Shown here one piece after another: positions 6,289 through 60,131 of a DNA stretch of 64,000 nt; within the stretch, counting starts at the first letter, position 1; each line of letters begins with the position of its first letter. The notes under the pieces are model-generated. The model was not told the DNA's origin and did not search any database. It saw nothing but the letters and a program-made list of their open reading frames with translations. The position numbers and the translations under genes were made by a program. The stretch is from Patescibacteria group bacterium (GTDB lineage: Bacteria; Patescibacteriota; Microgenomatia; UBA12405): contig JAHIPV010000020.1 of assembly GCA_018902845.1 (NCBI GenBank), positions 74,810 to 138,809 on the forward strand, written 5' to 3'.

Positions 6289-8085
6289 TCATTGTTTAGT
6301 ATATATTTTAAACGCTGGGAGGTCGTTTGTGAAATTGATGATATCAACCGGCTGAATTGGAACAGTTTCGTTTGAGGCTACTATAAGTGAATTTGAAGGA
6401 ATATTATCCCAATTAATTTTTTCAAAATGAATATTATCTATTTGTTTTACTGTAGAAAAACCAAATTTATCCGGAGGTGTTAATTTGATTTGGTTATGAA
6501 GGGCAGGTGGTGGATATTTTGAATAAAAAAGATACAGGATGTAAGGTTGATCGTATTTATCGGTTATATAGATGTTGCTAAAATTATTTTTTTGAGACTC
6601 TATATAAGGAATTAGCCGATCAAAACCTTGATTCCATGCAAAGGGATAGCGTTTGGGGGAGTGAATGTGATAAGAGCTAAGGTAGTAGGCTATCGAGTAG
6701 GAGTAAAAAATAACAAGAAAGAAGAGTATGGAGGGTTGTTTGTGAGTAAGACTTAAGAAAGATTGAATACCAAAAGCGGTGAGGATAGTGAGGGGGATGA
6801 CCATGGGAAGAGCGCGGAGAGCGGATGGGGCCTGGAAAGTGAGGGATGAAGCTATGGGTGAGAGAAAAAGCCAGAGAAAAATAAACTTATAATTTGTTTG
6901 AGTGGTTATGAGATCCCTCGACTTCGCTCGGGATGACAATAACTTCGCTCGGGATGACAATAACTTCGCTCGGGATGACAATAACTTCGCTCGGGATGAC
7001 AGCATAACTACAATGCCTAGAATTAAAAATGGGAGTTCTATTAAATGGAATTGACCTATTTCTGGGCTTTTGGAACGTGGGACCTCGTCTCCATTGATAA
7101 AAAGAAAGTTTAAATCAAAGTGGGAAAAGTATTTTTCGGCCCATGAAATTGCGTAAAGAACTCGGGCATTATGTGTGATTCTGTTAATCAGTGTTGTTTT
7201 TTGACTTTGGTTAAAGTGGTGATTTAATAATTCATTGGAACGCCACAGTGGACCTTGATCGGCTGTTATACCAACTCCGGAAAAACGAGTTGTACCGCCA
7301 TTCTTGAAGAAGGAAAAAACAACTGGCAGAGTGATAAGGATGCCAAAAAATAAAGAAAGGATAAATTTTTTATGAGATCCTTCGGCAAGCTCAGGATGAC
7401 GTAGTATTTTATTTCGATTAATAAAAAATAAAGATAAAGCAAGTAAGGGGGCGAAAATGCGGGCAGAGTGATAGGTGTATAAAGAAAGAGAAAGGAAAAG
7501 AGCGAAGAGATAAAGATTGTGTTTTCCCCCTGCGGGTGACTGCGCTGATGCTTGTTTTGTGTTAGTGTTTTTGTAGAAATAATAAGTGCCGATAATAATA
7601 AACGAGAGGGCGGTACAGGATTCCCAGGCACCGCGGGAAAAGTGGATGTGCCAGGGGTTAATAGAAAGCAAGAAAGCAGAAAGTAGAGAAAGTGTTAAAT
7701 TGTTTGTAATAAGAAGAACAAGTTTGTAAAGAAAATAAATTGAAAGAATTGAAAGAATTAGGTTAGGGAGGCGAACAGCAAGAGGAGTAAGGCCAAGGAT
7801 TTTGATAAAAGGAAGAGTAAGGTAAAAATATCCTCCGGGTTTGAAGTCACTAAATGATTTAAAATGAATGGGCCAAGGGATACTGTGTTCGTCTTTTCCG
7901 GTTTGGAGTAAAGAGTAAGCATTGTAGCCGATAGCGGCTTCGTCTGGATTGAGAGAAGGAAGATTGGAGATATTGTAGAAACGGAGAAGAATTGCAAGGA
8001 TGAGAATATATACGATAGGATTCTTCGCTACGCTCAGAATGACGACTGTTGGTTTGGTTTTGTTTGATTGATGATTGTTTGTCAT
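6289..8085 (-). CDS. GT39/ArnT-like GT-C membrane glycosyltransferase, a protein O-mannosyltransferase-like paralog
   Basis: N-terminal NPDEAAIGYNAYSLLQTGKDEH..KPGGYFY..LAVRLPNLILS (DE motif, loop 1 of GT39/GT83) with many TM helices. It contains in-frame repeats: 6908..7004 (SSRAKLL x4), 7374..7401 (RHPELAEGS) and 7525..7557 (QSPAGG). Confidence 0.7.
   Translation of the reverse strand: MTNNHQSNKTKPTVVILSVAKNPIVYILILAILLRFYNISNLPSLNPDEAAIGYNAYSLLQTGKDEHSIPWPIHFKSFSDFKPGGYFYLTLPFIKILGLTPLAVRLPNLILSILSIYFLYKLVLLITNNLTLSLLSAFLLSINPWHIHFSRGAWESCTALSFIIIGTYYFYKNTNTKQASAQSPAGGKHNLYLFALFLSLSLYTYHSARIFAPLLALSLFFINRNKILRHPELAEGSHKKFILSLFFGILITLPVVFSFFKNGGTTRFSGVGITADQGPLWRSNELLNHHFNQSQKTTLINRITHNARVLYAISWAEKYFSHFDLNFLFINGDEVPRSKSPEIGQFHLIELPFLILGIVVMLSSRAKLLSSRAKLLSSRAKLLSSRAKSRDLITTQTNYKFIFLWLFLSPIASSLTFQAPSALRALPMVIPLTILTAFGIQSFLSLTHKQPSILFFLVIFYSYSIAYYLSSYHIHSPKRYPFAWNQGFDRLIPYIESQKNNFSNIYITDKYDQPYILYLFYSKYPPPALHNQIKLTPPDKFGFSTVKQIDNIHFEKINWDNIPSNSLIVASNETVPIQPVDIINFTNDLPAFKIYTKQ
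6908..7004. repeat. Family-B repeat with its 21-bp terminal unit tandemly amplified ~3.8x, in-frame in the GT39 gene
   Basis: gagatccctcg + (acttcgctcgggatgacaata) x3 + a partial unit. Translated on the minus strand as SSRAKLL x4. Confidence 0.9.
7525..7557. repeat. Family-C repeat CCCCCTGCGGGTGACTGCG, in-frame in the GT39 gene (QSPAGG)
   Basis: Other copies at 9234..9267, 9379..9410, 9962..9990, 14315..14345, 35410..35450 and 44616..44648. Variants with a ..GACTTCGCTTCGC tail occur at 5214..5247 and 20934..20964. Confidence 0.85.
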
Positions 8086-9913: not shown

Positions 9914-11549
9914 AAGCCGGGGTGTTGTCTAAAAAATTAATTGTTTTTAACAGTTTAGCGTCCCCCTGCGGGTGATTGGCATTTGTTTGTGGATAGTTGT
10001 TAGGAGAAGTAATGAGGAGAGTGGATGTACGAGAGGATCCTTCGACAAGCTCAGGATGACGAGGAACGATTTCCCAGTCATTTATAAATTTAAATTTATC
10101 AAAGGCATCGACCCAGTACCAATTAGCGTGATAATCCCAAACTTTATTGGGATCAGATTGATAAGTCTCTGGATCCCATGGCCAATAAAAGAGAACGAAT
10201 TCATGTGCTTCGCCGTATTTTTTGGTAAAGTAGATTTGATCATATTCTGAATAGTTTTCTTTTATAAAATCAATGGCTTGTTTATAACCATATTGCCATG
10301 ATTGTGAATATTTTTGGGGATAAAAATTAATATATTTGTTCCAATAAGAAAAGAATTGTAGAAATAGACCAAGAGAAATGATTGGCAAAAGTTTTGGCAT
10401 AAATTCAAGTCCCAGCGCAATCAAGATGTATGGAATTGGAAGTATACTAACAGCGCGGATAATGGGAAAATCCCCTGACGTAAGGGCCGAAGGGAGGAGT
10501 CCTATGATAAACCAAAGAAGAATTAGTTTTTTATTGTTTGGTGAAAGTTTGTTAAGCGATAAAATGCCAATATAAAAGAAAGGTAAACAAATCGAATAAA
10601 GAATGCCTGTGTTGGGAATATTAAACTGATAATTACCCGTTCCTTTGAAAAAGAGTAAATACGGATTAAGAAAGTTTATGTAGTTTGTAATAAATTTGGG
10701 AATAAAGTAAGTAAGCTTGTTGTGAACAAGACGGGCGAAAAAGGGCGATAGGGTGGATTGGCCTCTTTGGTGGTTAATAATATTAATGGCATCTTGATTG
10801 AGAATAAAAGTCCAACGAGAACGGGCTTGAGAATCTGGAAGACTTAAATTAATTAGCTGGGGTATGGTAAAGATTAGAAAAATGGCCATAGAGATTAAAA
10901 CTGTGTTTTTGTGTTTTTTGAATAGTGCTGAAGTTTGTTTTTTATAGATAAAAAGAATTATTGGTACAAGCAAAGGGATAACTATGCGGGTGTTGTGATA
11001 GGCGTATTGAGATAAAGCTAAAAAAACAGAAGAATAGATGAGGAGTGTTTTTTTTTGTTGTTTTAGGGTGTAAAGCAACAAGGTGATGCCACCGATAAGA
11101 AAAAAGGAAGAAATAGTGGATTGAAAAACAGCCCTGGAAGGGAATAAGCTCCAGGGGGAAACGGCACTAAGTAGTGTGACAAAAAGAGCCAATTTTTCTT
11201 TTTTTAAAATAAGCTTGGCAAGAAAATAGGTTGGAATTAAAGTAAGGGCGCCAAGCAGAGCTGATGGCAGACGAGAAGTGAATGCGTTTATTCCGAAGTA
11301 TTTAACCAAAGGAAGTGTTAGATACATGTTTAAAGTAGTGGGGAAATCGCCATAGGCGCGAAAGTTAAAAATTGGCCAAGAGACTCCCCACTGATCTTTG
11401 CCTGTTTTAGCGAGACTGTAGGCGTTATAGGTATGGCTAATTTCGTCCCAATTTAAGGAGGGAGGGAATTGATCAAGTTTGTATAGTCGAAGAAAAAGAG
11501 AAAAGATAAAAATAATTATGAATAAAATTTGGTGAGTTTTAATTTTCAT
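9891..11549 (-). CDS. GT39/ArnT-like GT-C membrane glycosyltransferase paralog
   Basis: NWDEISHTYNAYSLAKTGKDQWG..AFTSRLPSALLG. The C-terminus carries repeat-derived PRHPELVEGS (10034..10061) plus 9962..9990. The 3' end overlaps the start of the 8105..9913 gene. Confidence 0.7.
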   Translation of the reverse strand: MKIKTHQILFIIIFIFSLFLRLYKLDQFPPSLNWDEISHTYNAYSLAKTGKDQWGVSWPIFNFRAYGDFPTTLNMYLTLPLVKYFGINAFTSRLPSALLGALTLIPTYFLAKLILKKEKLALFVTLLSAVSPWSLFPSRAVFQSTISSFFLIGGITLLLYTLKQQKKTLLIYSSVFLALSQYAYHNTRIVIPLLVPIILFIYKKQTSALFKKHKNTVLISMAIFLIFTIPQLINLSLPDSQARSRWTFILNQDAINIINHQRGQSTLSPFFARLVHNKLTYFIPKFITNYINFLNPYLLFFKGTGNYQFNIPNTGILYSICLPFFYIGILSLNKLSPNNKKLILLWFIIGLLPSALTSGDFPIIRAVSILPIPYILIALGLEFMPKLLPIISLGLFLQFFSYWNKYINFYPQKYSQSWQYGYKQAIDFIKENYSEYDQIYFTKKYGEAHEFVLFYWPWDPETYQSDPNKVWDYHANWYWVDAFDKFKFINDWEIVPRHPELVEGSSRTSTLLITSPNNYPQTNANHPQGDAKLLKTINFLDNTPAFEIIAYE

Positions 11550-13225
11550 CGATTAGTAAGGAGATCCTTCGTCCGACTAATCGGGTTCAGGATGACGAGT
11601 AAGGTTAACAAAGTGATGATACTAATAGTATTGGCCACGGTTCTTATTGGTGTATTTTTTAGTTTAAGAGTTAGAGTATGGTCGCCTTTTGGTAGTTTGA
11701 GTTGGATAAGGCCAAGGTCCGGCGTGATTGTGATTGGCAGTTTTTGGTTATTTTGGTTATAGATTTGCCAATTGGGAAAATAAACCATAGGAAAAGTAAT
11801 GGTGGCAAATTCTGAATCGACTGTAATGGAAATATCGGCCCTGTTGCTGGTTTTATTAAATGAATTTAAGGTAATTTTGTCTAGCGAAAATGGTTTTGGG
11901 GGAGCAAATTCCGGTGGAAATTGATTGCCAGAATTAGGCCAATAATCTTTTAGTCCGGCACCGCTTTGGCGAATTATTTCTTGTTTGTTTAATTTATCTT
12001 TATCAGTTAAGTTTGAATACCAGATATCTTCTTTGAAATATTTTATGTTAAGAATTATGGTGGCGGTGCTTATTAATATAAGCCATAATTGTCTTTGGTT
12101 TTTTGGAATTAGGCTAATTAATGATGCTGAGATAAAAGATAGAGAAAAAATTGCTATACCCAAAAAGCGCCAAGGAAATTGAAAGTATGCCATAAAAGGA
12201 AAAAGTTTCCATATAAAAATGGAACGTGGATGGGTTAAAAAAAGCGAGATTAAAGACAAAAGAGCGAAAAAAATAAGAATTGGAATATTTTTTATTGGTT
12301 TTTTATTTGTTTTAAGTAAAAATAAGATAAAGCAAATTAGTGGAACTAGCCAATGTATGTATCCAATCTGAAAAGACATATCGTCAATTGGCCCCCAAAG
12401 GGAAGCGCCAAAACCCCAGTCATGGCTAAAAAATAATTGTTTTAGAGTTGTAAAATGGGCTTCGTAATTAAAATATCCCTGTGTCATGGTTTGAATGGTT
12501 ACTAGTTTTTTTTCCAAAAGTGCCGGGATGATAAAAAACGAAGATAGGCCTAAACTTAGGAAAATAGGAAGAAAAAGTTTGAATCGAATTTGTTTTTGGT
12601 AAAAAAAGATATATAAAATGAGGATGGGGATGGTGACTAGTGATATTAGATTGTGGCAAAGGAATAGAGATGATAAAAGTATTGTTGATACAAGCAAGTT
12701 TTTTTTAGAGGATTTTTGGAGATATTTAGTGATTGACCAAAAAACGAAAGGTAGCAGTGAGAGAGCAAAAAATTCTGCCAATGCTCCCCTGACATATCCA
12801 TCAACGGCCCTATATGGGGCAAAAAGATAGAGAATGGTGGAGAGAAGAGCACCTTTTTGACCCCAAAAGAGTTTAGAAAAAAGAAAAATGCCGATGCCGG
12901 CTGACAAGTGGCCCAGTACAAAAGTAAGTTTGATGCTATTTATCAGGCTAAGGCCAAAAAGATGAAAAGTTTCGGCGATGATGTAGACAAAGGGTGGATA
13001 AAAATTGAAGAGTGGGTAACCGTATCCAAATCCCCCGTTGGATATAAAACGGCAAGGGATTTGCAGGTCTTTGATACATTGATCAAACTGTTGAAGACGA
13101 AATATGTGAACATCGTCTTGCATGGAGAAATATCCGGATCGAAAAAGTCGGAAACAGGTGAGAAAAGATATGGTTAATATGAAGATATATGGCAATAAAA
13201 ATTTCTTTTTAAAAAAGCATTTCAC
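11546..13225 (-). CDS. Polytopic GT-C-like membrane protein, PTPS-related/DUF-type (paralog of 28994..30892)
   Basis: Conserved block MQDDVHIFRLQQFDQCIKDLQIPCRF..GYGYPLFNFYPP shared with the 28994..30892 protein. The C-terminal 15 aa are encoded by the repeat at 11561..11597. Confidence 0.55.
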   Translation of the reverse strand: MKCFFKKKFLLPYIFILTISFLTCFRLFRSGYFSMQDDVHIFRLQQFDQCIKDLQIPCRFISNGGFGYGYPLFNFYPPFVYIIAETFHLFGLSLINSIKLTFVLGHLSAGIGIFLFSKLFWGQKGALLSTILYLFAPYRAVDGYVRGALAEFFALSLLPFVFWSITKYLQKSSKKNLLVSTILLSSLFLCHNLISLVTIPILILYIFFYQKQIRFKLFLPIFLSLGLSSFFIIPALLEKKLVTIQTMTQGYFNYEAHFTTLKQLFFSHDWGFGASLWGPIDDMSFQIGYIHWLVPLICFILFLLKTNKKPIKNIPILIFFALLSLISLFLTHPRSIFIWKLFPFMAYFQFPWRFLGIAIFSLSFISASLISLIPKNQRQLWLILISTATIILNIKYFKEDIWYSNLTDKDKLNKQEIIRQSGAGLKDYWPNSGNQFPPEFAPPKPFSLDKITLNSFNKTSNRADISITVDSEFATITFPMVYFPNWQIYNQNNQKLPITITPDLGLIQLKLPKGDHTLTLKLKNTPIRTVANTISIITLLTLLVILNPISRTKDLLTNR

Positions 13226-13247
13226 AGGTTAATTATATATGTTTGGA

Positions 13248-14954
13248 TTAGTCGTTGGCTATCGAAGTTTTGTAGATATAGATGGCTGGGGTTTGGGAGG
13301 TGGCGTAGGGATAGTAGATGATTTTGTCTATTTTGGTTGAGACAGGGAATTCTTCCGGTTTGCCGATTAAAATTGTGTCTGGTTCTAAACTATCGGCGGC
13401 AAAAGTTAATTCTCTAAATATAAAATTATCCAGTTTGTATTCACCAAGCTGATCCAAGAAAGATAATCCCTTTTCGTCATATTTAAGCCAATTTATTGAT
13501 TCTTGCTGAGTTAGTTTTGGTGCAATTTTCATAAAAAAAGAAGCATAGGCTTGTGGTTCTGAGAGTTTGCGGGAGTAAATTATCTGAGAAGGTTTTTCTT
13601 TTTGAACGTATTTTATGGCTTCTTTATGACCATAAAGCATGCCGTGGGCTAGAATTTGATTGCCACGATAAAAATAAGTGCTAAGAAAATCTAGATTATA
13701 GAAAATAAATATTGATGCCAAGAGAATTAAAGTAGCTTTTTTGATTTGTCTTTGAGAGATTTTTTGGTAAAAAAGATAAAGACCGGTGACAGAAAAAATT
13801 TGAATAAATGGAATCATGATTGAAGCCCGGTTTCCAAACATTTGGCCCTTAGCTAGAGTGGCGGGAATTGGAGTTAAAAGGATTAGGGGGAGTAAAAAAA
13901 GTAGTTGGGAGTGATAGATATTGTGCTTTTTTGAAAAAATAGAAGTTAGTGAAACGAGAAGTCCTAAAAACAAAAGTGGATTAAGGACTCCAAAACTTGG
14001 AATCATGCCGTAGTCGGTTTCTGAGGCCCCGTTTGTAAGTAAAAACTGGGGAGAGAAATAAGAAAAATAGTTTTGGAAAAATATTTTTGTTGTGTAGATA
14101 AACTTGTTGTTAAAAATTCTGCTAATTTGAGTTGGCAGGCCATTTTGAATAGTTTGAAATTGTTGGTCGGAAACAGATTGCCACTTGTCGGTAGGGTTAA
14201 ATATGACAATATCCGAAGTTCTGGTGGAGTTGGAATTAAAAAAGTTGATAGTAAGAAATAAGAAAATGACAGAATAGAAAACTAAATATGGTTTGAGGTT
14301 TGAGAATATTTCTCCCCCTTCGGGTGACTGCGCCGTTGCTTGCCTTTTTTTGTAAACGGAGATTAATATAATAACCAGAGGGACAAGGGCTTTGGTGGAA
14401 TGGTAAGAGAAAGAAGCAAGAATTAAAAGAATGGCTGAAATGATTAAATTTTTACAAGATTTTGTTGAATTGGTAGAGCGCAGAAAAAAGAAAAGGCCAA
14501 GAGAAACAAAAAATACGTGAAGATTGGCTTCAAGAGCCAACCGAGACATTGGCAGGTGCCATGGTGAAAGACTTAAAAAAAGGGCAGAAAGAAGTGGAAT
14601 GGCGATTGTTCGTTTAAAGAGTTGTTTGGTAAAAAGAAAAACAGCAATAATTGAGAGAGATGAAAATAGGGCATTAGGAAAACGGGCGGCAAAAGGTGTT
14701 AGGCCGAATAATTTTATTGATGGAATCATTAGATAAGTTTGTAGGGGCGGTTTAAAGTCACCAAAGGAACGTAAAGATAATGGCCAGGGAATTCCCCACT
14801 CGTCTTTGCCGGTGTTTAAAAGCGAATAAGCAGTATAGGCTTGAGCTAATTCATCGGGACTGTAGGAACTTGGTAGAGATTCAAGTTTGTAGAATCTAAG
14901 AAAAGTACCCAAAATAAATATTAAAAATAAAATGATGTATGATTTGCGATTCAT
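13248..14954 (-). CDS. GT39/ArnT-like GT-C membrane glycosyltransferase paralog
   Basis: SPDELAQAYTAYSLLNTGKDEWGIPWPLSLRSFGDFKPP..AARFPNALFS. There is an in-frame QSPEGG repeat at 14315..14345. Confidence 0.7.
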   Translation of the reverse strand: MNRKSYIILFLIFILGTFLRFYKLESLPSSYSPDELAQAYTAYSLLNTGKDEWGIPWPLSLRSFGDFKPPLQTYLMIPSIKLFGLTPFAARFPNALFSSLSIIAVFLFTKQLFKRTIAIPLLSALFLSLSPWHLPMSRLALEANLHVFFVSLGLFFFLRSTNSTKSCKNLIISAILLILASFSYHSTKALVPLVIILISVYKKRQATAQSPEGGEIFSNLKPYLVFYSVIFLFLTINFFNSNSTRTSDIVIFNPTDKWQSVSDQQFQTIQNGLPTQISRIFNNKFIYTTKIFFQNYFSYFSPQFLLTNGASETDYGMIPSFGVLNPLLFLGLLVSLTSIFSKKHNIYHSQLLFLLPLILLTPIPATLAKGQMFGNRASIMIPFIQIFSVTGLYLFYQKISQRQIKKATLILLASIFIFYNLDFLSTYFYRGNQILAHGMLYGHKEAIKYVQKEKPSQIIYSRKLSEPQAYASFFMKIAPKLTQQESINWLKYDEKGLSFLDQLGEYKLDNFIFRELTFAADSLEPDTILIGKPEEFPVSTKIDKIIYYPYATSQTPAIYIYKTSIAND

Positions 14955-15040
14955 GATCGATAAATTCTAAATTCTAATATCTAAATTCTAAATAAATTCA
15001 AAATTCAAATGTTCAAAATTTAAAACTAATTAAAATAAAT

Positions 15041-16792
15041 TTATAATTTTTGGATTATTTGGGCGAAGATTAAATTGTTTGGTAAATAAACTGTATCGAT
15101 TGTTTTAAAACCATCTGGTGGGTTTTTGCTTAGATCCCAGTCTCCAGGAATATCCAGAAGCTGGAAAAGAACAAAAGTATCTGAGCTTTGGGCTATTTTA
15201 GCAATTTTATCTATAGTTGATGTGGCGTTCCAGTTTGTGACGAAAAAGATTTGGTCGTTTAATTTGAAGCCGGATAAATCTTGGTAAAAATTATCAACAG
15301 TTTTGTCAGTAAAATTTGATTGATGGAGTGATTGTGGCGGATATTTGCTATAAAAAAGATAATGAATTAAAGAGGTATAGTTGCTGTTGCTGATAAAAAG
15401 ACGGTTGGTGTTTGATGGTATGGATTGCATAAGTTGTTGATAGCCATATTGCCATGATTGAAAAGAATCTTTGGGATAGCGAACAAAATAATTGCGATAA
15501 TAAAAAATCATATTGATTGATAACGATGTGATTATAAGTATGGTAATAATTTTTGATTTGTTGGTGATGGCAAGAAAGCCTTTGGAGACAAAATAGATTA
15601 GTGGTGGCAGTATCAAGAAAAGTCGAGTGGCTTGAGTACCGCCGTCTATGGTAAGACTGGTGGGTATAGGAGCTATTAGTAGCCAAAAAAACATAAGTTG
15701 ATTAGCTTTGCCGTTTTTTTTGTTTTTATTAATGGAAAAAAATCCAAACAGTAGGAGTGGTAAAAAGGTGATTGGCAGAAGACCAAAATCTGATGGACTG
15801 TGGCGAGGGTTAGGATCGCCGGAACGAAAAAGAAAATTGAAAGAAAGACTTGATAAATAATTATTGGTAAAAATATTTAGTGTTTTTGTCAGTTTGTTAT
15901 AAAAAATTCTTTCTGTTTCAGAATCAGTAGCAGAAAAGCCCGTTCTTTTTGTAATTATTTCTTCTGTTATTTTTGGGTTATTAAAGATACCAATGAGTTT
16001 GAAACGATTGGCGGCTGAACCGGAAAGAATGTTTTTGGCAAGAGGAAATAAAAGGAATAGGGCCAAAAAAGCTGGTGCTTGTTTTTTAGTTGCTTGTTTT
16101 TTGATTTCTTTAAAATTTGTGAGAATGAGAAATATAACAAGAAGTGGTGTGAAAATATTGGCGGTGTTATAAGTGTAAAAAGATAGTGAAAAAATAAAAA
16201 TGGAGAGATAAAGGTAGGGGGAAAATGATTGGTTTTTTTTGAGGGATTTGTAAAAATAATAAGTGCCGGAGAGGATGAGAGTGAGGAGAAGAGAAACTTC
16301 AAAGGCGGTGCGACTGTAGTGGAAGTGCCAGTTTGATAGGCCTAGGAATACAGAAGAAAGAAGAGCCAGATTAGAGTTTTTGGTTTGGATTTTGACTAAT
16401 TTATATAAATAAACAATGGCTAGAATGGCGAAAACAACCGAAGGTAAACGAACAGCAATTGGATTAAGCCCAAAGAGTAATACAAATGGAATGGTGGTGT
16501 ACATGAGTAAAGGAGCTCGAGATTCGGCCAAAGAGTCTATATAAAAAGGTAATAAATTTCCTTTGTAGTCTTTGGCGGTTTTTAAAAGAGAATAGGCATG
16601 ATATCCAACGTCGGCTTCGTCGCCAAAAAGTGGGAGAATGTCTAGTTTGTAAAGTCTTAAAAAGATAGATATAAAAAAAATGGTAATGAGAAAAAATTTT
16701 ATGAAGATGTTGAATAGGTTTCTGGGGGATCCTTCGTCCGATGAATCGGACTCAGGATGACGAATAGGAAAAAATTTTATTTTTTGTGACAT
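15041..16792 (-). CDS. GT39/ArnT-like GT-C membrane glycosyltransferase paralog
   Basis: GDEADVGYHAYSLLKTAKDYKGNLLPFYIDSLAESRAPLLMY..AVRLPSVVFA. The start is chosen at the internal Met (MSQKIKF..) because the upstream part overlaps the GT2 gene. The N-terminal RHPESDSSDEGS comes from the repeat at 16725..16762. Confidence 0.65.
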   Translation of the reverse strand: MSQKIKFFPIRHPESDSSDEGSPRNLFNIFIKFFLITIFFISIFLRLYKLDILPLFGDEADVGYHAYSLLKTAKDYKGNLLPFYIDSLAESRAPLLMYTTIPFVLLFGLNPIAVRLPSVVFAILAIVYLYKLVKIQTKNSNLALLSSVFLGLSNWHFHYSRTAFEVSLLLTLILSGTYYFYKSLKKNQSFSPYLYLSIFIFSLSFYTYNTANIFTPLLVIFLILTNFKEIKKQATKKQAPAFLALFLLFPLAKNILSGSAANRFKLIGIFNNPKITEEIITKRTGFSATDSETERIFYNKLTKTLNIFTNNYLSSLSFNFLFRSGDPNPRHSPSDFGLLPITFLPLLLFGFFSINKNKKNGKANQLMFFWLLIAPIPTSLTIDGGTQATRLFLILPPLIYFVSKGFLAITNKSKIITILIITSLSINMIFYYRNYFVRYPKDSFQSWQYGYQQLMQSIPSNTNRLFISNSNYTSLIHYLFYSKYPPQSLHQSNFTDKTVDNFYQDLSGFKLNDQIFFVTNWNATSTIDKIAKIAQSSDTFVLFQLLDIPGDWDLSKNPPDGFKTIDTVYLPNNLIFAQIIQKL

Positions 16793-17670
16793 TTTGAAGA
16801 TAACCAGATAATAAGTGTTAACAGATAATGCTTCAAAAGACCGTGGTAAATTTTTGAGCTGGGAATAAGTCGTCGCCATTGATTTTCGGAATTGCTTAAA
16901 CTTTTTCCACTAAGGCCGTGGTAGTGAATAACTTTGCATTGTGGATAACAATAAACTTGCTTGACTGATTTGTGTATCCGGCGACAAAGGTCGAGATCTT
17001 CAAAATACATAAAATATTTTTCATTCCATTTGCCGAGTTGATCAAAGAGTTTTTTTGATATAAGAAAAGCACCGCCAGAAATGGCGTAAACAGAGGAAGG
17101 GGTTGTATCCTTGGGTATATTTTTAGTAAAGGCATATTTTTGCCCAAGCCAAAATTCTTTAAATGCGTTTAAAATAGATTGTTTTGGAAAAACAGAGGCT
17201 TGTGGGGTTTTGTTTGGATTTAAAAATTGGGGGCCAATAGCCCCAACTTTGGGACTTTTTTGAAGAAATTGAAGCATATTGACAATAGAACTATCAACTA
17301 ATTTCATGTCTGAGTTAAGAAAAAGTAAATAGTCGCCTTTGGCTTTTTTAGAGGCTATATTGTTTCCTTTGGCAAAACCGAAATTCGAAGAATTTTGAAT
17401 TAATTGGATTTTTACGTCATTCTGAGGCGAAGCCGAAGAATCTCGTTGTTGTTTTTGCCGATTCCGAGGGGATCCTTCTCCCCCTTGCGGGTGATCAGGA
17501 TGACGATGTATAAGGGTTTTTTTGATTTGATTAACAGAATTGTCTGTGGAGGCGTTGTCGGCAACGATGATTTCGTGTTTAATGTCTTTGATATATTTAA
17601 AAATTGATTTAATGCAGTTTATAGTGGCTTTGGGTGTGTTCCAGTTGAGAATGATGATGCTAAGGTCCAT
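16777..17670 (-). CDS. Glycosyltransferase family 2 with an in-frame ~90-nt repeat insertion
   Basis: IIILNWNTPKAT..IVADNASTDNS..LFLNSDM GT2 motifs. The insert at 17415..17505 encodes HRHPDHPQGGEGSPRNRQKQQRDSSASPQND. Confidence 0.75.
   Translation of the reverse strand: MDLSIIILNWNTPKATINCIKSIFKYIKDIKHEIIVADNASTDNSVNQIKKTLIHRHPDHPQGGEGSPRNRQKQQRDSSASPQNDVKIQLIQNSSNFGFAKGNNIASKKAKGDYLLFLNSDMKLVDSSIVNMLQFLQKSPKVGAIGPQFLNPNKTPQASVFPKQSILNAFKEFWLGQKYAFTKNIPKDTTPSSVYAISGGAFLISKKLFDQLGKWNEKYFMYFEDLDLCRRIHKSVKQVYCYPQCKVIHYHGLSGKSLSNSENQWRRLIPSSKIYHGLLKHYLLTLIIWLSSKCHKK
17415..17505. repeat. Long family-B variant (CGTCATTCTGAGG..GAAGAATC + GGGGATCCTTC..CAGGATGACG) in-frame in a GT2 gene
   Basis: cgtcattctgaggcgaagccgaagaatctcgttgttgtttttgccgattccgaggggatccttctcccccttgcgggtgatcaggatgacg. 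Near-identical copies occur at 24335..24450 and 63373..63452. Confidence 0.9.
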
Positions 17671-20968: not shown

Positions 20969-22147
20969 TTAATTTATTATTTCTAATAATTTTTTTTCAA
21001 AGTTTTGTTTGGAAAATTTAGCGGAATCTTGTTGTGTTTGAACGGATAATTGTTCCATTAATTGCGGAGAACCGATAAGAAGTTGGGTTTTGGAAACCAA
21101 TTCGTCTATATCGCTCCAAAGGAAACCGTTTTTTCTTTCATTGATTATTTCTGGTAAACCACCCTTTTTTACCACAATTGGAATTGTTCCGGAAGCCATG
21201 GCTTCGACTACGGCCATACCAAAATGTTCGGTATTTTGGGGATTAATATTTTCGTCTACTCCAAAGCCTGCCGCATGCCAATAAATTTTGCTTTGGGAAT
21301 AAATTTTTTTGAGGGTGTCAAAATTTGGACCGATTAAAAATTCAATGGGAAAATTTTTGGCTTCATATTTTAAGTGTTTTAGGTAATTATTAAGCTCAGG
21401 TTTTTTTATAGAACCGCCGACCAAAATTAATTTCCAGTCTTTGTTGTTTTGATTTTGACTAAGTTTTTTGAAGGCTTTGATAAGAATATCCTGCCTTTTT
21501 TTGTTTAATATATTGTCAAATCTGCCAACCGATAAAATAATGTTTTCTTTTTTACCGGAGGCTGAAAATTTATCTGTATCTATGGGGGGGTATAACAGAG
21601 AGGATTTGTGGTGAAAGGTTTTTTTGAATTGATCTTGAGTGAAGATAGAATTGCAAATAATGTTTTTGTTTAAAAACAGTTTAAGTTTGTTGGCTATTTT
21701 GGTTTGAAAACTGAATTTGTTGGTAAAAGGAACTTGGCAGTGAAGAATGTTTTTTTTGGCAAAAAGAATTGGAATACTGCCATCGCTTAGATAGAAAAAA
21801 AGATTGTAATTGCGAGTAATCTTAAGCTTGTTTAGTAGATGTTTAACTTTTCCTAAGTTTGTACGTGTTTCTTTTTGTGTACTATTGATTTTTTTTAGTT
21901 GGCTGTGATCTTGGATTAAATCGATGTTTTGTTGGGGTTGACTAAAAATGTCGGGAACCAGATTGAGGTTTTCTAAATTTAGGGCAAATCTATCTTGGGC
22001 CTTGTCAATTAAATCTTTGTCTTTGGACCAAAATATATCAACTTGATAATTATGTTTTAAGAGAATTTCGGCGATAGTGAGCATGTAGCGCTCCCCTCCG
22101 CCGAGAGTGTCTAAGTAAGGATCGTATATGCCGACTTTTAATGGCAT
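20969..22147 (-). CDS. Glycosyltransferase family 4 (GT1-fold)
   Basis: C-terminal NTEHFGMAVVEAMASGTIPIV GT4 EX7E-type motif. Directly upstream lie a 4 x 8-bp tandem repeat and a TTAAGTATATATG box. Confidence 0.75.
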   Translation of the reverse strand: MPLKVGIYDPYLDTLGGGERYMLTIAEILLKHNYQVDIFWSKDKDLIDKAQDRFALNLENLNLVPDIFSQPQQNIDLIQDHSQLKKINSTQKETRTNLGKVKHLLNKLKITRNYNLFFYLSDGSIPILFAKKNILHCQVPFTNKFSFQTKIANKLKLFLNKNIICNSIFTQDQFKKTFHHKSSLLYPPIDTDKFSASGKKENIILSVGRFDNILNKKRQDILIKAFKKLSQNQNNKDWKLILVGGSIKKPELNNYLKHLKYEAKNFPIEFLIGPNFDTLKKIYSQSKIYWHAAGFGVDENINPQNTEHFGMAVVEAMASGTIPIVVKKGGLPEIINERKNGFLWSDIDELVSKTQLLIGSPQLMEQLSVQTQQDSAKFSKQNFEKKLLEIIN

Positions 22148-22164
22148 GAGTTAAGTATATATGC

Positions 22165-22196
22165 TGGATGACTGGATGACTAGATAACTGGATAAC
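22165..22196. promoter_or_regulatory. Tandem repeat, 4 x 8 bp of the same octamer family, upstream of the GT4 ATG
   Basis: ggatgact ggatgact agataact ggataact, preceded by gagttaagtatatatgct, which is nearly identical to the ftsX box. Confidence 0.6.
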
Positions 22197-22222
22197 TCGA
22201 AAGAAAGATAAAAATTAGGTAT

Positions 22223-36371: not shown

Positions 36372-37097
36372 TTAGTGAAGGGCTTTCCAGAGGTTAATAG
36401 AGTCTATGGCGGCCTTTTTCATAACTTTGAAATCAGATCCACTTGATGAACCGTGTAAGCGAGGATAATGACCAATCGGGACTTGGGCCCATTTGAATCC
36501 AAGTTTTTTGATTTTGATTAATAGTTCGGTGCTGGTGATGGCGCTGTCAGTTTTTAGTTTGCCAACCTGGTCAATAACCTTTTTGTTAAAAAGTTTGAAG
36601 GCACAGTCAACATCTTTGACTCCATAGAAACCGAACCAGATAAAGTTCCATATTTTGAGCAAATTGGCGATAAGAATTCGAGTGTAAGAATCTCTTCTTT
36701 TGGCGCGATAACCCAAAATAACCTGGTAATTAGTTTCTTTTTGTTTTTTGATTAATTTTTTGATATCAGAAAAATCAAATTGGCCGTCTGAGTCGGTAAA
36801 AGTAATCCAGTCGTACTTTGAATTATAGAGGCCTGCTTTAAAAGCGCCTCCGTAGCCTTTGTTTTTGAGGTGATTGATGATTTTTAGTTTATTTCCGTGT
36901 TTTTTGGCGAGGATTTTGGCTTTTTCTAGTGTTTTGTCAGTGGAGCCATCGTTGACTAAAACGATTTGCCATTTTGGAGTTATTTTGTTTAAAACCAAAA
37001 CAGCCTTGTTAACAGTATTTTCGATGTTTTTTTCTTCGTTATGGCAGGGAAAAAAGACAGAAAGTTCAGGAATGATGTATTTAGCTTTGACTGACAT
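36372..37097 (-). CDS. GT2 polyprenol-phosphate glycosyltransferase (DPM1/ArnC-like)
   Basis: LSVFFPCHNEEKNI..IVLVNDGSTDKT..FTDSDGQ motifs. Confidence 0.7.
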   Translation of the reverse strand: MSVKAKYIIPELSVFFPCHNEEKNIENTVNKAVLVLNKITPKWQIVLVNDGSTDKTLEKAKILAKKHGNKLKIINHLKNKGYGGAFKAGLYNSKYDWITFTDSDGQFDFSDIKKLIKKQKETNYQVILGYRAKRRDSYTRILIANLLKIWNFIWFGFYGVKDVDCAFKLFNKKVIDQVGKLKTDSAITSTELLIKIKKLGFKWAQVPIGHYPRLHGSSSGSDFKVMKKAAIDSINLWKALH

Positions 37098-37120
37098 TAG
37101 ATAAGTATAAGATATAAAAT

Positions 37121-37150
37121 TACGAATTACGAATTAAGAATTACGAATTG
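37121..37150. promoter_or_regulatory. Tandem heptamer, 4 x ACGAATT, upstream of the GT2 (36372..37097) ATG
   Basis: aaattacgaattacgaattaagaattacgaattgag, preceded by a tagataagtata box next to the ATG. Confidence 0.45.
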
Positions 37151-37193: not shown

Positions 37194-38492
37194 TTACTGC
37201 ATGTGGAGGTATAGAGTCATTTTGCCGTCGGGATGAAAAAGTTTGACGTGGTTGCCTAAACTGCTTGACGGGTTTCTAAAAAAGTAGGCAACACCTTCGT
37301 TAATAGCCAAAATCGTTCTGTTTGATGAAACAAGGTCAATACCGTGGTGGAATTTGTCACTGTAGAGATAAGCATACTTAGTGACTCCCCTGCCTTGAGT
37401 TATTTCGAAAGGATTATTTAAAGGCCAACCATATTGATTAATATATTCCTGCGCGTCTATGTCATTAAAATAACTCCAAACAGAAAGATTTTCTTCTTTA
37501 AGTTGATAAAGACCAAAGTGTAAGTGTGTACCACAATCAGGGCACGTGGGGGATGGTGGTGGAAGAGAAAATCCGGTATTGCCCATTATTCCCAAAGGTT
37601 CACCTTTGCTAACTTGTCTTTTTCCAACAAATTTAGCTTTTAAAAGAGCGCTTAGTTCTTGTTCTGCCTCTGATTTTAGTTTTTGGTAGGTTTTTTCGTC
37701 GTTTTTGGTAATAGCCAAAAGATTGTCTTTGGCTGCTTTTTGTCCAATCAATTCCTTTTTTTGTCTGTCCAGGGTTTCTTGAAGGTTGGCCAGTTCTTCT
37801 TGTTTTTGTTCTTTTTTTTGTTTTTGAATATCATAGTTAGTCCTGACTGTTTCCAGGTTAAGCATGGTTTGCTGGTTGGCTTTTTGAAGAACCTGAATAT
37901 ATTTATATTGTTCAAAGAAGTGGTTAAAGCTTTTGGAGGAAAAAATACTAATGGATGGAATTTTTTTACTTATTTTGTAATTTTCATTGACTTGGCTCAA
38001 AAATAAACTTGATAGCTTGTTTAGATCAACATCAAGTTTATTAATTTCTTGTGTCAATTCGATAATTTCTTTTTTGAGAATTTCTATAGATTGTTCTATT
38101 TGAGAAATTTTTAGAGAAGTCAGCTGAACCTGGGAATTAAGATAGTTGATTTGGTTAGAAAGAGTGTCTTTTTCTTTGGAAAGTTGAATTAGTTTTTCTG
38201 TATATTGGTCTATTTTGTTTTGAATGTCGCCAGGAGTGTTTTGAGCTTGAATGGAAAAAGAAAAAAAGAAAAAGAAAATGAGAGATAAAAATAAAAAAAA
38301 AGCTTTTTTAAAGTTCCGACGGGATTGCCACGTCGTCACGTAATAAATTAAGAAATTTAAACGTGATTTCCTCGCAATGACAGGTGTATCATACTTGCGG
38401 GCGACCGCAAGGGTCGCCCCTACAAAAAACTGGCGCAATGACTGGATGTGATGCTTGATACTGGTGATTATTTTATTCACCCGTTTTATCAT
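37194..38492 (-). CDS. Coiled-coil M23 (LytM-domain) metalloendopeptidase, likely the FtsEX-coupled cell-separation hydrolase
   Basis: C-terminal M23 motifs HLHFGLYQ and HHGIDL after a long coiled coil. It overlaps ftsX by 4 nt (operon ftsE-ftsX-M23). The N-terminal ~55 aa are encoded by repeat modules (38316..38442). Confidence 0.7.
   Translation of the reverse strand: MIKRVNKIITSIKHHIQSLRQFFVGATLAVARKYDTPVIARKSRLNFLIYYVTTWQSRRNFKKAFFLFLSLIFFFFFSFSIQAQNTPGDIQNKIDQYTEKLIQLSKEKDTLSNQINYLNSQVQLTSLKISQIEQSIEILKKEIIELTQEINKLDVDLNKLSSLFLSQVNENYKISKKIPSISIFSSKSFNHFFEQYKYIQVLQKANQQTMLNLETVRTNYDIQKQKKEQKQEELANLQETLDRQKKELIGQKAAKDNLLAITKNDEKTYQKLKSEAEQELSALLKAKFVGKRQVSKGEPLGIMGNTGFSLPPPSPTCPDCGTHLHFGLYQLKEENLSVWSYFNDIDAQEYINQYGWPLNNPFEITQGRGVTKYAYLYSDKFHHGIDLVSSNRTILAINEGVAYFFRNPSSSLGNHVKLFHPDGKMTLYLHMQ
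38316..38442. repeat. Composite repeat (GGGATTGCCACG..GCAATGACAGG module plus the family-A hairpin) inside the N-terminal coding region of the M23 gene
   Basis: ccgacgggattgccacgtcgtcacg ... cctcgcaatgacagg ... gcgggcgaccgcaagggtcgcccctacaaaaaactggcgcaatgac. Confidence 0.85.
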
Positions 38493-39358
38493 TTAATATA
38501 TCTTCTAACTCCTACAAGACTGGCAAGATAAGAAATGGTTACTCCGGCTAAATTGGCAATGCCTAGGATTTTTAGATAATAATTTAAATCAAACCGGATA
38601 AAGGTAACGGGTTTAAAAAAGTTGTTAATATCGTTAGCAAAATGATAGGCCAATAAAGAGGCGATAAGCCAGCCGATAAAAGATCCAAGGATGCCATAAA
38701 TTATCCCTTCAAGAAGGAAAGCTTTTTTGGTATAAAACCTGGAGGCTCCCAAAAGGCGACTGATTTTAATTTCGTCTTTTCTGTTGGTAATTTTCATGCC
38801 TATAATGACAGAAATTACGAAAAAGGCCAAGGTTGCCAAAACGGAAACGAGAATAATTCCAAAACGGCGAATATTGTTAGTCCAGGTTATCAAAGATTGA
38901 ACAACATCTTGTTGATAGATTATTTCATCGACTATGTCTTTTTTTTGGCTGAAATTTTGAGCAATTTGTGAAAGAATATTTGGATTTAAAGCTGAAATTT
39001 CAAAAGATGCCGGTAAAATACTGGCAGTAACCATTTCAGTTAGCATTTGGTTATCCTTGTTTTGTTCTTTGTAGATTTCCAAGGCTTTTTCTTTTGAAAT
39101 AAACCTGATTTCTTTTAGATCTGGATAGCTACTGATTTCTTTTTGAATTGATTCAACGGTGTCTTTATCAAGTCCGTCTTTTAGGAAGATAGTGATTTCT
39201 GGTTTTGATTCAAAAAATTTTAGAGTAGAAGACAATCCGGAGCTAATGATATAGAAAGCGGAAAAGACAAAAAAACTGAAGGCTAAAGTGCTTATGGCAG
39301 CTAAGCTTTGAAACGGAGATCTTCTGATGTGGTGCCAGGTGGTTTTAGAGGTGGACAT
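38489..39358 (-). CDS. ftsX: Cell division permease-like protein FtsX
   Basis: 289 aa with an N-terminal TM, a periplasmic domain and C-terminal 3-TM FtsX architecture; downstream of ftsE. Confidence 0.7.
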   Translation of the reverse strand: MSTSKTTWHHIRRSPFQSLAAISTLAFSFFVFSAFYIISSGLSSTLKFFESKPEITIFLKDGLDKDTVESIQKEISSYPDLKEIRFISKEKALEIYKEQNKDNQMLTEMVTASILPASFEISALNPNILSQIAQNFSQKKDIVDEIIYQQDVVQSLITWTNNIRRFGIILVSVLATLAFFVISVIIGMKITNRKDEIKISRLLGASRFYTKKAFLLEGIIYGILGSFIGWLIASLLAYHFANDINNFFKPVTFIRFDLNYYLKILGIANLAGVTISYLASLVGVRRYIK

Positions 39359-39376
39359 GATTTAAGTATATATGTT

Positions 39377-39424
39377 GGATGACTAGATGACTAGATGACT
39401 GGATGACTGGATGACTGGATGACT
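39377..39424. promoter_or_regulatory. Variable-number tandem repeat, 6 x 8 bp ([A/G]GATGACT), in the ftsE-ftsX intergenic region 19 nt upstream of the ftsX ATG
   Basis: ggatgact agatgact agatgact ggatgact ggatgact ggatgact, preceded by the conserved box gatttaagtatatatgtt. Confidence 0.6.
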
Positions 39425-39432
39425 GGAAAAAA

Positions 39433-58850: not shown

Positions 58851-58920
58851 TCGTCATTCTGAGTGTAGCGAAGAATCCCAAGGGGATCCTTCGTCCGACT
58901 GATCGGACTCAGGATGACGG
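58851..58920. repeat. Tandem pair of family-B modules between the sortase-like gene and tyrS
   Basis: tcgtcattctgagtgtagcgaagaatcccaaggggatccttcgtccgactgatcggactcaggatgacgg. Confidence 0.85.
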
Positions 58921-58932
58921 TGTGTGTGCCGT

Positions 58933-58970
58933 TCCCCCTGCGGGCGACCGCAAGGGTCGCCCCTACAATT
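58933..58970. repeat. Hybrid family-C/family-A repeat in the tyrS leader
   Basis: ccccctgcgggcgaccgcaagggtcgcccctacaatt. Confidence 0.85.
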
Positions 58971-58997
58971 GTTTTTCTAATAAGCTATAATCCGGTT

Positions 58998-60131
58998 ATG
59001 ACTGTTGATGAAAGATTGAAATTAATTACCAGAAATTGTCAGGAGGTGTTGGTTGAGAAGGAGTTGAAGGAATTGCTGGGAAATGGGACAGAGTTGAAGC
59101 ACTATATCGGTTTTGAAATTTCGGGAATGGTGCATTTGGGGACTGGGTTGATTTCGATGGGTAAAATTGCTGATTTTGTAAAAGCCGGAGTTAAATGTCA
59201 AATTTTTTTGGCTGATTTTCATTCTTATTTAAATAATAAATTAGGCGGAAATTGGGAAAATATTCGCTGGGCAACAGAAAATTATTTTAAAGAGGGACTG
59301 ATTGCTTCTTTAAAATGTTTTGGGGTTGATGAAAGCCAAATTGAATTTATTACCGGAAAAGAATTGTACACAGATAATATTGTCCACTGGGAAACTTTTA
59401 TGGAAGTGGGTAAGCATGTGACTTTGTCACGAAATTTAAGATCAATTTCGATTATGGGAAAAATGCAGGGCAAGGATGTTGATATGGCCACTCTTTTTTA
59501 TCCCCCGCTTCAGGTAGCTGACATTTTTACTATGGGGGTTAATTTAGCTCATGCCGGAACGGACCAAAGAAAAGCTCATGTGATAGCTCGACAAGTGGCA
59601 AAGAAATTGATAATTAATCCGCTTAAAAATGCCAAAGGTAAAGTAATAGCACCGATTGCTATCCACCAAAATTTGATTGCTGGATTAAGCGGACCGACTA
59701 CAGGCGAGAATAGTGAAGAAAGTTTAAAAATGAGTAAGTCAAAACCAGGTAGTGCTATTTTTGTACACGATACTGCTGATGAAATCAGAGAAAAAGTCAA
59801 AAAAGCTTATGGGCCACCAAAAGAGATTGAGTTTAATCCGTTGATTAATTGGATGGAAAATTTGGTTTTTTGGGGAGAAGGTGAAAGTAAGGACGGACTT
59901 AAGGTGAAAAGGGCTGAAAGATTTGGAGGGGATGTAAGTTATTATAAAATTGCTGATTTGATAGATGATTATAAAAGTGAAAAATTACATCCGATGGATT
60001 TAAAGAGTGCATTAAGCGAGTGGTTGGTTGAAAAACTAGAACCGGCCAGAAAGCATTTTGAAAGTGAAAAGGCTAAAAAAGGGTTGGAAAAGATGAGAAA
60101 GTTGATGCTGTCATCACAAGGAACGAAGTGA
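58998..60131 (+). CDS. tyrS: Tyrosyl-tRNA synthetase, archaeal/eukaryotic type
   Basis: HYIGFEISGMVHLG (HIGH-like), KMSKS, and a C-terminal RAERFGGD..LHPMDLK..LEPARK collinear with the archaeal-type TyrRS. The start is placed at the internal Met because the upstream 28 codons are repeat 58933..58970. Confidence 0.8.
   Translation: MTVDERLKLITRNCQEVLVEKELKELLGNGTELKHYIGFEISGMVHLGTGLISMGKIADFVKAGVKCQIFLADFHSYLNNKLGGNWENIRWATENYFKEGLIASLKCFGVDESQIEFITGKELYTDNIVHWETFMEVGKHVTLSRNLRSISIMGKMQGKDVDMATLFYPPLQVADIFTMGVNLAHAGTDQRKAHVIARQVAKKLIINPLKNAKGKVIAPIAIHQNLIAGLSGPTTGENSEESLKMSKSKPGSAIFVHDTADEIREKVKKAYGPPKEIEFNPLINWMENLVFWGEGESKDGLKVKRAERFGGDVSYYKIADLIDDYKSEKLHPMDLKSALSEWLVEKLEPARKHFESEKAKKGLEKMRKLMLSSQGTK

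Follow-up and report, generated by a model that had tools for sequence, protein, structure and literature searches.

The window considered here is a stretch of 64,000 nucleotides from a Patescibacteria group bacterium (assembly GCA_018902845.1, contig JAHIPV010000020.1), and the elements in question are arrays of a tandemly repeated octamer that stand directly before three of its minus-strand genes: ftsX, a GT4 glycosyltransferase gene and an nrnA-like gene. Taken together, these arrays are best read as a lineage-specific, fast-evolving family of promoter-upstream repeats. In the window each of them forms what, judged from the sequence, is the upstream half of a sigma-70-type promoter of a predicted leaderless mRNA, and the octamers are tentatively regarded as iterated protein-binding sites that would overlap the promoter as an operator or a roadblock.

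Composition and position of the octamer arrays

Written on the minus strand, which is the coding strand of the three genes, the octamer unit is GTNRTCYA: each conserved TCYA box is succeeded by GT and then by two bases that vary; in another register it reads CCAGTCAT. The tandem repeats were measured with Tandem Repeats Finder (TRF), and the arrays and their genes are the following:

39376..39427, minus strand: ftsX octamer array (TRF period 8, 6.5 copies including a partial unit, 95% matches, score 90)
22164..22197, minus strand: GT4 octamer array (TRF 4.2 copies)
48624..48671, minus strand: nrnA-like octamer array (six degenerate units with a 16/24-bp higher-order period)
38489..39358, minus strand: ftsX, 289 aa, predicted leaderless mRNA, ATG at 39356-39358
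20969..22147, minus strand: GT4 gene, Glycos_transf_1 (Pfam), ATG at 22145-22147
47585..48604, minus strand: nrnA-like gene, DHH and DHHA1 (Pfam), ATG at 48602-48604

Read towards the start codon, the region upstream of ftsX consists of (T)CCAGTCAT four times, CTAGTCAT twice, CCAACATA, TATACT, TAAATC and ATG; that of the GT4 gene of GTTATCCA, GTTATCTA and two copies of GTCATCCA, followed by GCATA, TATACT, TAACTC and ATG; and that of the nrnA-like gene of GTTATCCA, GTAATCCA, GTTGTCTA, GTTGTCCA, GTAATCTA and GCTGTCCA, followed by ATAAGC, TATAAT, AACTCCT and ATG. The ftsX array takes up nearly all of the 74-bp gap between ftsE and ftsX (39359-39432), and at the nrnA-like gene TRF reports periods 8, 16 and 24 over 48616-48672. 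The three arrays lie exactly where the preliminary description of this DNA had placed them, and in a pattern count two successive units (with at most one mismatch) were matched 13 times in the window against 0.07 expected, every time inside the three arrays. The conserved box that had been reported as common to ftsX and GT4, CATATATACTTAAMTCATG, occurs exactly twice in the window, at these two genes, and 0.05 occurrences are expected.

A search beyond the window, which the preliminary description had proposed, extended the accessible genome to about 105 kb and added a fourth array about 6 kb away (locus L268, 16640-16691), with 5.5 units of the GTNRTCYA family on the coding strand of a second GT4 gene, whose protein is unrelated in sequence to the first. 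Four loci of the accessible genome therefore share one octamer unit family. Among the 21 units of the four arrays, T5, C6 and A8 are invariant, G1 and T2 are nearly so, and variation is found only at positions 3, 4 and 7; the longest run of identical consecutive units is four, and the arrays show 77–95% matches in TRF. A count of single octamers that might make up a dispersed regulon gave nothing convincing: CYAGTCAT is found outside the arrays in five copies, all of them in coding DNA, where 1.6 are expected for the whole window. Some units contain TTATCCA, which we take to coincide with seven of the nine bases of a DnaA box, with the CACA end missing, and most units have no such match.

The arrays as the upstream half of predicted leaderless promoters

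The core of the “TTAAGTATATATG box” of the preliminary description is a predicted −10 element, TATACT, that ends 6 nt before the ATG of ftsX and of the GT4 gene. The promoter elements next to the arrays, together with a single-box promoter of the same geometry, are:

39365..39370, minus strand: −10 element TATACT of ftsX, 6 nt before the ATG; its core GTATATACTTAAATCATG is kept in the sister species
22154..22159, minus strand: −10 element TATACT of the GT4 gene, 6 nt before the ATG
48612..48617, minus strand: −10 element TATAAT of the nrnA-like gene, 7 nt before the ATG, in the motif TCCAATAAGCTATAAT
39388..39393, minus strand: putative −35-like TAGTCA of ftsX, inside the array and 17 bp from the −10 element (9/12 matches)
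22177-22182, minus strand: putative −35-like TAGTCA of the GT4 gene, likewise inside a repeat unit and 17 bp upstream of the −10 element
13232..13247, minus strand: single-box promoter TCCAAACATATATAAT, 6 nt before the GTG of gene 11546..13225, with the same distance from box to −10 element and no array

The layout at the three window loci is the same: an array (about −68 to −21, the A of the ATG being +1), 5–6 nt, TATACT or TATAAT, 6–7 nt and the ATG, so that the start codon indeed follows closely behind a TATA-type hexamer, as first described. The reported lack of a Shine-Dalgarno (SD) sequence holds as well, since none is found at ftsX, GT4 or the nrnA-like gene and only 5 of the 53 open reading frames (ORFs) in the window have an SD-like tetramer. 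A −10 element that ends 6–7 nt before an ATG without an SD sequence points to the promoter of a leaderless mRNA, and this predicted design is common in the window genome and in its relatives. In the window, TATAMT-N5-8-ATG occurs 13 times (4.6 expected), a −10 box lies 4–10 nt upstream of 20 of the 53 ORF starts (against 9.6% of random positions), and TCCA-N5/6-TATAMT occurs five times (0.85 expected), four of them at leaderless starts. TAGTCA is found exactly 17 bp from the −10 element also at the array-free gene 16777..17670, and the motif TCCAATAAGCTATAAT of the nrnA-like promoter recurs as TCTAATAAGCTATAAT at 58976-58991 on the plus strand.

A wider set of about 255 candidate leaderless promoters before long ORFs, with the −10 element 5–8 nt before the start codon, was taken from 0.8 Mb of Shapirobacteria DNA (loci L125-L207, L264 and L266, and the window). 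In this set an unforced TG stands at positions −3/−2 of the hexamer in 56–64% of cases (an extended −10, TGnTAtAAT), there is almost no −35 signal, and the subset without TG has a weak TTG 17–18 bp upstream; the extended TG and the weak TTG are features of promoters and not of ribosome binding. The three array-linked promoters are without the TG of the extended −10. Beyond the window species, a general TCYA-N5/6 element is not visible in the clade-wide promoter profiles, locus L171 of a relative excepted. A consensus promoter scan was not discriminating, with 42 promoter-like sites against 40.5 expected, which is the level of chance.

To our knowledge, transcription signals and gene regulation are almost entirely unexplored in the Patescibacteria, or Candidate Phyla Radiation (CPR), whose members are not growable alone, and in the literature leaderless promoters in CPR were found only as a passing mention. 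The locus offers a promoter picture that can be tested, with extended −10 or −35/−10 boxes 6–7 nt before the ATG and an ftsX gene uncoupled from ftsE by an inserted promoter, and it marks the DNA just upstream of leaderless promoters as a hotspot for short tandem repeats.

Copy number and the question of phase variation

In the preliminary description the arrays were supposed to change promoter spacing by slippage, as a “classic phase-variation design.” Stated generally, the proposal is that slipped-strand gains and losses of units switch or tune ftsX, GT4 and nrnA in the manner of a rheostat, and several features speak for it: the repeats stand in tandem close to a promoter, a GT4 glycosyltransferase belongs to a typical class of contingency genes, and gains and losses of units do happen in the clade over evolutionary time. 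The spacing switch, however, is excluded by geometry. The repeats begin about 5 nt upstream of the −10 element and continue to about −68, so they are not confined between −35 and −10 but span the −35 position and pass beyond it in constant register. Since the units are alike and in phase, the 40 bp next to the promoter would be unchanged by any gain or loss of a unit, the −35/−10 spacing cannot vary, and the phase-variation reading is therefore not supported. Furthermore, the ftsX array begins only 10 nt after the stop codon of ftsE, which leaves no distal site whose phasing could change.

The comparison of copy numbers that had been suggested gave the same number of units in every full-length instance of an array (four such instances for ftsX, including the record of the window itself, three for GT4 and seven for nrnA). 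The assemblies compared came from ENA, JGI and Logan, from several samples, and included the metagenome-assembled genomes (MAGs) GCA_018895715.1 (whose contig JAHIMY010000028.1 takes in the sequence of the window) and GCA_018896095.1 (2 differences in 19,647 bp). This constancy counts against phase variation, but the assemblies are nearly clonal (99.99–100% identical), which makes it a weak test. The same data do contain a repeat that varies. A perfect 21-bp repeat in frame at 6921-7001 (3.9 copies), which encodes (LLSSRAK)n and whose unit is the motif GTCATCCCGAGCGAAGT, resembling repetitive extragenic palindromic (REP) elements, has two units fewer in assembly L270 from sample ERZ27247113; that sample has unaltered ftsX and nrnA arrays, and the sequence is otherwise 99.98–100% identical to the window. 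Its host is the minus-strand gene 6289..8085, which encodes a PMT-like membrane glycosyltransferase of 598 aa (584 aa in L270); this repeat is a real coding variable-number tandem repeat in the population. Four short contigs from other samples (L003, L004, L211 and L212) end at or in the arrays, one of them with a variant unit, and could reflect mixed alleles, in favour of phase variation. Against it, the tracts are short and imperfect (at most four identical units), and ftsX and nrnA are housekeeping genes and not typical contingency genes.

Known phase-variable promoters include that of hif in Haemophilus influenzae, with TA repeats between −35 and −10, and that of nadA in Neisseria meningitidis, with TAAA repeats. 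The promoter-associated 7-bp repeats of hmw1A and hmw2A are phase-variable as well (PMC8262952). The arrays described here are like these in that tandem repeats adjoin a promoter and a glycosyltransferase is among the genes; they differ in that the octamers are not confined to the −35/−10 gap, in their four to six imperfect units where the known tracts have tens of perfect ones, in the housekeeping genes that follow them, in a host that is a groundwater episymbiont and not a host-adapted pathogen, and in that no polymorphism of copy number was detected among the nearly clonal assemblies. All this makes phase variation very unlikely, and the octamer arrays should not be annotated as phase-variation loci.

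Turnover of the arrays between sister species

The closest named homologues of the FtsX, NrnA and GT4 proteins of the window belong to Candidatus Shapirobacteria (Patescibacteria/CPR), and the window was compared at ftsE-ftsX with loci L129-L207 of this clade. In most Shapirobacteria (about 75 other loci) ftsE and ftsX overlap or abut, with no promoter between them, an arrangement that suggests translational coupling. Only the window species and its two nearest relatives have a gap between the two genes with a predicted leaderless promoter of its own.

The octamers are not conserved with these promoters. The ftsX gene of a relative at 66% identity has TATACT-N6-ATG without repeats, and that of the sister species (FtsX 80% identical) has the core GTATATACTTAAATCATG preceded by two or three copies of TTAGAAT and not by octamers. 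Likewise, the GT4 gene of a relative at 63% identity has TATACT-N6-ATG without repeats, in the sister species AATTC(G/T)T heptamers take the place of the octamers, and nrnA in that species lacks both an array and a neighbouring −10 element, its upstream synteny being different. No octamer array of the GTNRTCYA family was found in 780 kb from 80 related loci. The presence of the −10/ATG cores in relatives at 63–80% identity implies that the cores are older and the octamers young, and the comparison as a whole indicates a lineage-specific intergenic repeat family, with four loci here and other units in the relatives.

There are also signs that whole modules are copied. From their last units through the ATG, the modules of ftsX and GT4 hardly differ, and a heptamer array before a GT2 gene, which had been noticed in the preliminary description, is real (4.6 copies, 92% matches) and is a second type of repeat-plus-promoter module:

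37118..37149, minus strand: GT2 heptamer array (AATTCGT/AATTCTT, 4.6 copies), before TATACT (37104-37109) and the ATG of GT2 gene 36372..37097

Over about 66 nt this module shares about 86% identity with the module before a non-orthologous GT4 gene of the sister species. From these sequences it appears that upstream repeats have been replaced between sister species and copied between unrelated genes.

One explanation of such copies would be a mobile promoter cassette, in which array, −10 element and ATG form a transposable element, or one resembling a miniature inverted-repeat transposable element (MITE), inserted before genes. Nearly identical modules do stand before unrelated genes, both within the genome (ftsX and GT4) and across species (GT2 of the window and GT4 of the sister species), in a genome rich in REP/MITE-like elements. 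At their 5′ ends, however, the four arrays share no flanking sequence and show neither terminal repeats nor target duplications, and the −10/ATG cores at ftsX and GT4 are older than the octamers. With older cores and undefined ends, the copying is suggestive of gene conversion or of a replaced upstream region and not of insertion, and the cassette is most improbable.

TCTA-box arrays in the clade

In the genomes of the clade the commonest periods of tandem repeats are 7 and 8. The 780 kb from other Shapirobacteria were scanned, with shuffled controls, for each of the 256 tetramers repeated as at least four boxes spaced 7–8 bp, and TCTA ranked first, with eight arrays in five loci of relatives, all of them on the strand that is sense for ftsX. 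The shuffled sequences contained no TCTA-box array, and most of the other tetramers gave none either. The spacers between the boxes are variable, both inside one array and from one array to another, and on the sequence level the octamer unit of the window can be seen as the variant TCYA + GTNR of these TCTA-box arrays. In locus L171 the array stops 6 nt before TATACT, like the arrays of the window.

The TTAGAAT arrays, one of which precedes ftsX in the sister species, are TCTA boxes in inverted orientation, and the window has one of its own, listed here with a further repeat tract:

14961..15025, plus strand: TCTAAAT-type heptamer array (TTAGAAT on the coding strand), upstream of gene 13248..14954
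49898..49944, minus strand: degenerate repeats of about 10-bp period with ATCTAAC, directly after the SecA stop codon

The second of these had been described as TAGAT(A/G)A repeats at 49899..49945; repeats are present there, carrying ATCTAAC at a degenerate period of about 10 bp.

Between two strains with 97% identity, a TCTA-box array (L170 9069-9118 and L173 2741-2782) differs by exactly one 8-bp unit. These two arrays, and those at L163 12009-12087 and L169 3247-3277, lie between convergent genes, after the stop codon of an M23 peptidase gene, with units that differ by species.

When 185,579 species genomes were scanned for (GTNRTCYA)x3, the matches listed included Bacteroidales, Vibrio, Anaerolineae, Myxococcales and others, and among the same matches there was no CPR locus. 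About 90% of the listed arrays are intergenic, with no consistent orientation to the neighbouring genes. A cross-phylum octamer family was therefore rejected, as the arrays lack a consistent gene orientation and a reversed control is equally frequent (in viral contigs, 20 loci for the pattern and 24 for the control), and the matches are generic 8-bp simple sequence repeats (SSRs). Among loci L005-L124, some Bacteroidales MAGs each contain many long arrays of the GTTATCCA/GTCATCCA type, often at the end of a contig, while Vibrio europaeus has at least six loci of this type, with up to 12 units, mostly just past the 3′ end of a gene; both look like generic SSR families.

Proposed protein-binding sites or products of slippage

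The preferred, and still tentative, interpretation is that the octamers are iterated sites for a putative DNA-binding protein, which would bind cooperatively along the array, cover the −35 and spacer region and so control or insulate the promoters, by analogy with ribbon-helix-helix (RHH) repressors on contiguous 7–8-bp repeats. The arrays themselves would arise and change by slippage and would be copied between genes as whole modules of array, −10 element and ATG. The use of the repeats would be sequence-specific, given one unit family at four loci, its invariant positions, a TCTA core kept with divergent spacers and a fixed distance to the −10 element. The preliminary description had named iterated regulator sites as its alternative, and this part of it is viable, since it fits the pattern of conserved box and variable spacer. 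The arrays also have the make-up of RHH-type operators, which comprise at least two to four contiguous 7–8-bp units with a conserved core over a promoter.

Several observations weigh against this interpretation. Among the small ORFs of the accessible genome no RHH, omega-like or notable helix-turn-helix domain was found. The fourth octamer array ends 6 nt from the ATG with no −10 element between them, and TATAAT lies upstream of the array, in a divergent intergenic region, which means that octamers associate with gene starts generally and not solely with the −35 region. The variants of the unit may have been passed on by block duplication, and in that case few independent events stand behind the argument from constrained positions. 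In the convergent gaps of the relatives no promoter is expected at the TCTA-box arrays, and to this must be added the different repeats, or none, at the orthologous genes of the nearest relatives, the lack of the octamer family in the related loci and the equal frequency of the reversed control in viral contigs, all described above.

Many of the same facts would be explained if the arrays were near-neutral slippage repeats, that is, lineage-specific intergenic microsatellites, of the sort known from the cyanobacterial STRR and other hepta- and octamer SSR families, tolerated in short gaps, with neither a dedicated protein nor an effect of copy number, and possibly born from a −35-like seed (the proximal unit is at most a mediocre −35). 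Their turnover is fast, without conservation between orthologues; a single 8-bp unit separates the two 97%-identical strains; periods of 7 and 8 prevail in the clade; arrays lie between convergent genes as well; no candidate binding protein was found in about 105 kb; and generic 8-bp repeats are as common as the octamer family in viral contigs and abundant across bacterial phyla. Moreover, the intergenic DNA of bacteria is known to have an excess of heptamer SSRs, and polymerase slippage has been named as the cause (PMC4692102). Independent slippage events, however, should yield unrelated units, while the four loci share a unit family with invariant positions; the TCTA box is common to different species despite their diverged spacers; and the distance from box to −10 element is fixed at 5–6 nt. 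Neutral slippage on its own is the main rival and is considered somewhat unlikely.

The binding-site interpretation can be taken further, to a putative protein conserved in the clade that would polymerise on TCYA/TCTA arrays and control or insulate the leaderless, −35-poor promoters of Shapirobacteria, with fast renewal of the sites through slippage and through copied promoter modules, a proposal that as a whole we consider rather unlikely. If true, it would amount to a new global cis/trans regulatory system in Patescibacteria. More generally, if the repeats bind a protein, their genes would be among the first regulons defined in the CPR radiation; if they bind none, they would show by example how promoters in streamlined genomes are built anew through slippage and the copying of modules.

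Relation to known repeat families

MetJ binds 8-bp metboxes, and ParG binds ACTC-N4 boxes. The omega/ParB protein of plasmid pSM19035 binds 7–10 contiguous 7-bp WATCACW repeats over promoters, cooperatively and with one dimer per repeat (PMC9499535). The arrays resemble the operators of these three proteins in their contiguous 7–8-bp units without spacers, with a short conserved core and variable flanks, and RHH operators in general in that four to seven units lie over the −35 and upstream region, in either orientation within the clade. They differ from RHH operators in their core (TCYA), in being known from sequence alone, with no cognate protein found in about 105 kb, in their position at chromosomal housekeeping loci and in that some arrays of relatives lie between convergent genes.

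Genome-specific intergenic families have been described before, such as the short tandemly repeated repetitive (STRR) heptamers of cyanobacteria and the G-rich heptamer SSRs of Xanthomonas and Nostoc (PMC4692102), and the tandem hepta- and octanucleotides of Geobacter metallireducens, which were proposed as regulator sites (PMC2700814). The octamers are like all of these in being a genome-specific intergenic family of 7–8-nt repeats, with about four units per locus and a length and sequence that vary between close relatives, and they are unlike them in unit sequence, in having no G-quadruplex potential and in their tight coupling to predicted leaderless promoters. Intergenic hepta- and octamer families as such are therefore not new; what is new here is the phylum, the coupling to leaderless promoters and the turnover of modules between sister species.

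The closest parallel in position is provided by the TAACTGA heptamer direct repeats of marine Beggiatoaceae and of some Cyanobacteria and Bacteroidetes (MacGregor, 2015; PMC4679880). Like these, the octamers are lineage-restricted direct repeats of 7–8 nt in sets of two to six copies, almost all intergenic and on the coding strand, which end a few nt upstream of starts without SD sequences, and the downstream genes are functionally unrelated and in some cases essential. The differences are that the unit here has 8 nt (coding TCCAGTNA; the complement TAACTGGA resembles TAACTGA, on the opposite strand), that four loci have been found so far, in a CPR host, and that in three of the four cases a −10 element for a predicted leaderless mRNA lies between array and ATG, which points to a role at the DNA level.

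The TAACTGA repeats were proposed as sites of a post-transcriptional regulator (PMC4679880), and an element acting in RNA is conceivable here too: the arrays would work in read-through transcripts or in a 5′ untranslated region (UTR) as unstructured, G-poor platforms for an RNA-binding factor, either by enhancing translation independently of SD sequences, through proteins of the S1 or Csp type, or by Rho loading or insulation after the upstream stop codon. All four octamer arrays are on the coding strand, with the last box 6–19 nt from an ATG that has no SD sequence; the fourth, with TATAAT upstream and no −10 element before the ATG, would be part of a 5′ UTR; and the arrays at ftsX, GT4, L171 and L170 start 0–30 nt past a co-oriented upstream stop codon. 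Set against this, the genome is predicted to use leaderless starts, and at the three window loci a strong −10 element separates array and ATG, so that the arrays would not be in the main mRNA; some arrays of relatives follow a hairpin like that of an intrinsic terminator; and TCTA-box arrays also occur in inverted orientation. No terminator-like hairpin was found in the ftsE-ftsX gap, and a literature search found no report on Rho in CPR. An action at the RNA level is rated as improbable, and the protein-binding interpretation at the DNA level remains the preferred one.

Genomic setting and other repeats in the window

The window has a G+C content of 34–39% and carries a large cluster for cell-envelope glycosylation, together with ftsE-ftsX-M23 peptidase, prfA, secA, uvrC and other genes, and 48 of its 53 ORFs are on the minus strand. 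The start codon of ftsX is backed by 120 homologues, whose alignments begin at M1 and have 100% coverage; the product has FtsX_ECD and FtsX domains (Pfam), and the gene is flanked by that of an ABC ATPase (FtsE) upstream and that of an M23 peptidase downstream. GC skew on the plus strand is +0.14 to +0.37 across the window, with no switch inside it, and the coding strand is C-rich and G-poor; the sign of the skew is opposite to that of the usual G-rich leading and coding strand. Rfam gave no match at gathering thresholds in the whole window, which has no tRNA genes.

Two dispersed palindromic elements were observed, as follows:

49893, 45608, 43006, 40196, 24726 and 23524, minus strand: examples of full copies of the REP-like hairpin GTCATCCCGAGCGWAGYCGAGGGATCT, with about 29 partial matches
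60442, 60185, 58963, 52784, 48746, 47497, 44718, 38420 and 2034, minus strand: palindromic element GGGGCGACCCTTGCGGTCGCCC

The hairpin is scattered in intergenic regions, often just upstream of gene starts, in variants such as GTCATTCTGAGTCCGATTGATCGGACGAAGAATC. The second element has nine copies, some extended to about 80 nt (TTGTAGGGGCGACCC...GGAGGATCC); one copy stands directly upstream of the nrnA array and another upstream of the promoter at 58976.

An antisense ORF of 111 aa (39419-39754, plus strand) begins within the ftsX array (ATGACTGG...) and crosses ftsE; it is most likely spurious. At 58976-59000 on the plus strand, TCTAATAAGCTATAAT-N6-ATG lies inside the listed ORF 58914..60131, whose ATG at 58914 falls in a repeat element; translation probably starts at the ATG at 58998 (MTVDERLK..., a tRNA-synt_1b enzyme of 377 aa), again on a predicted leaderless mRNA.

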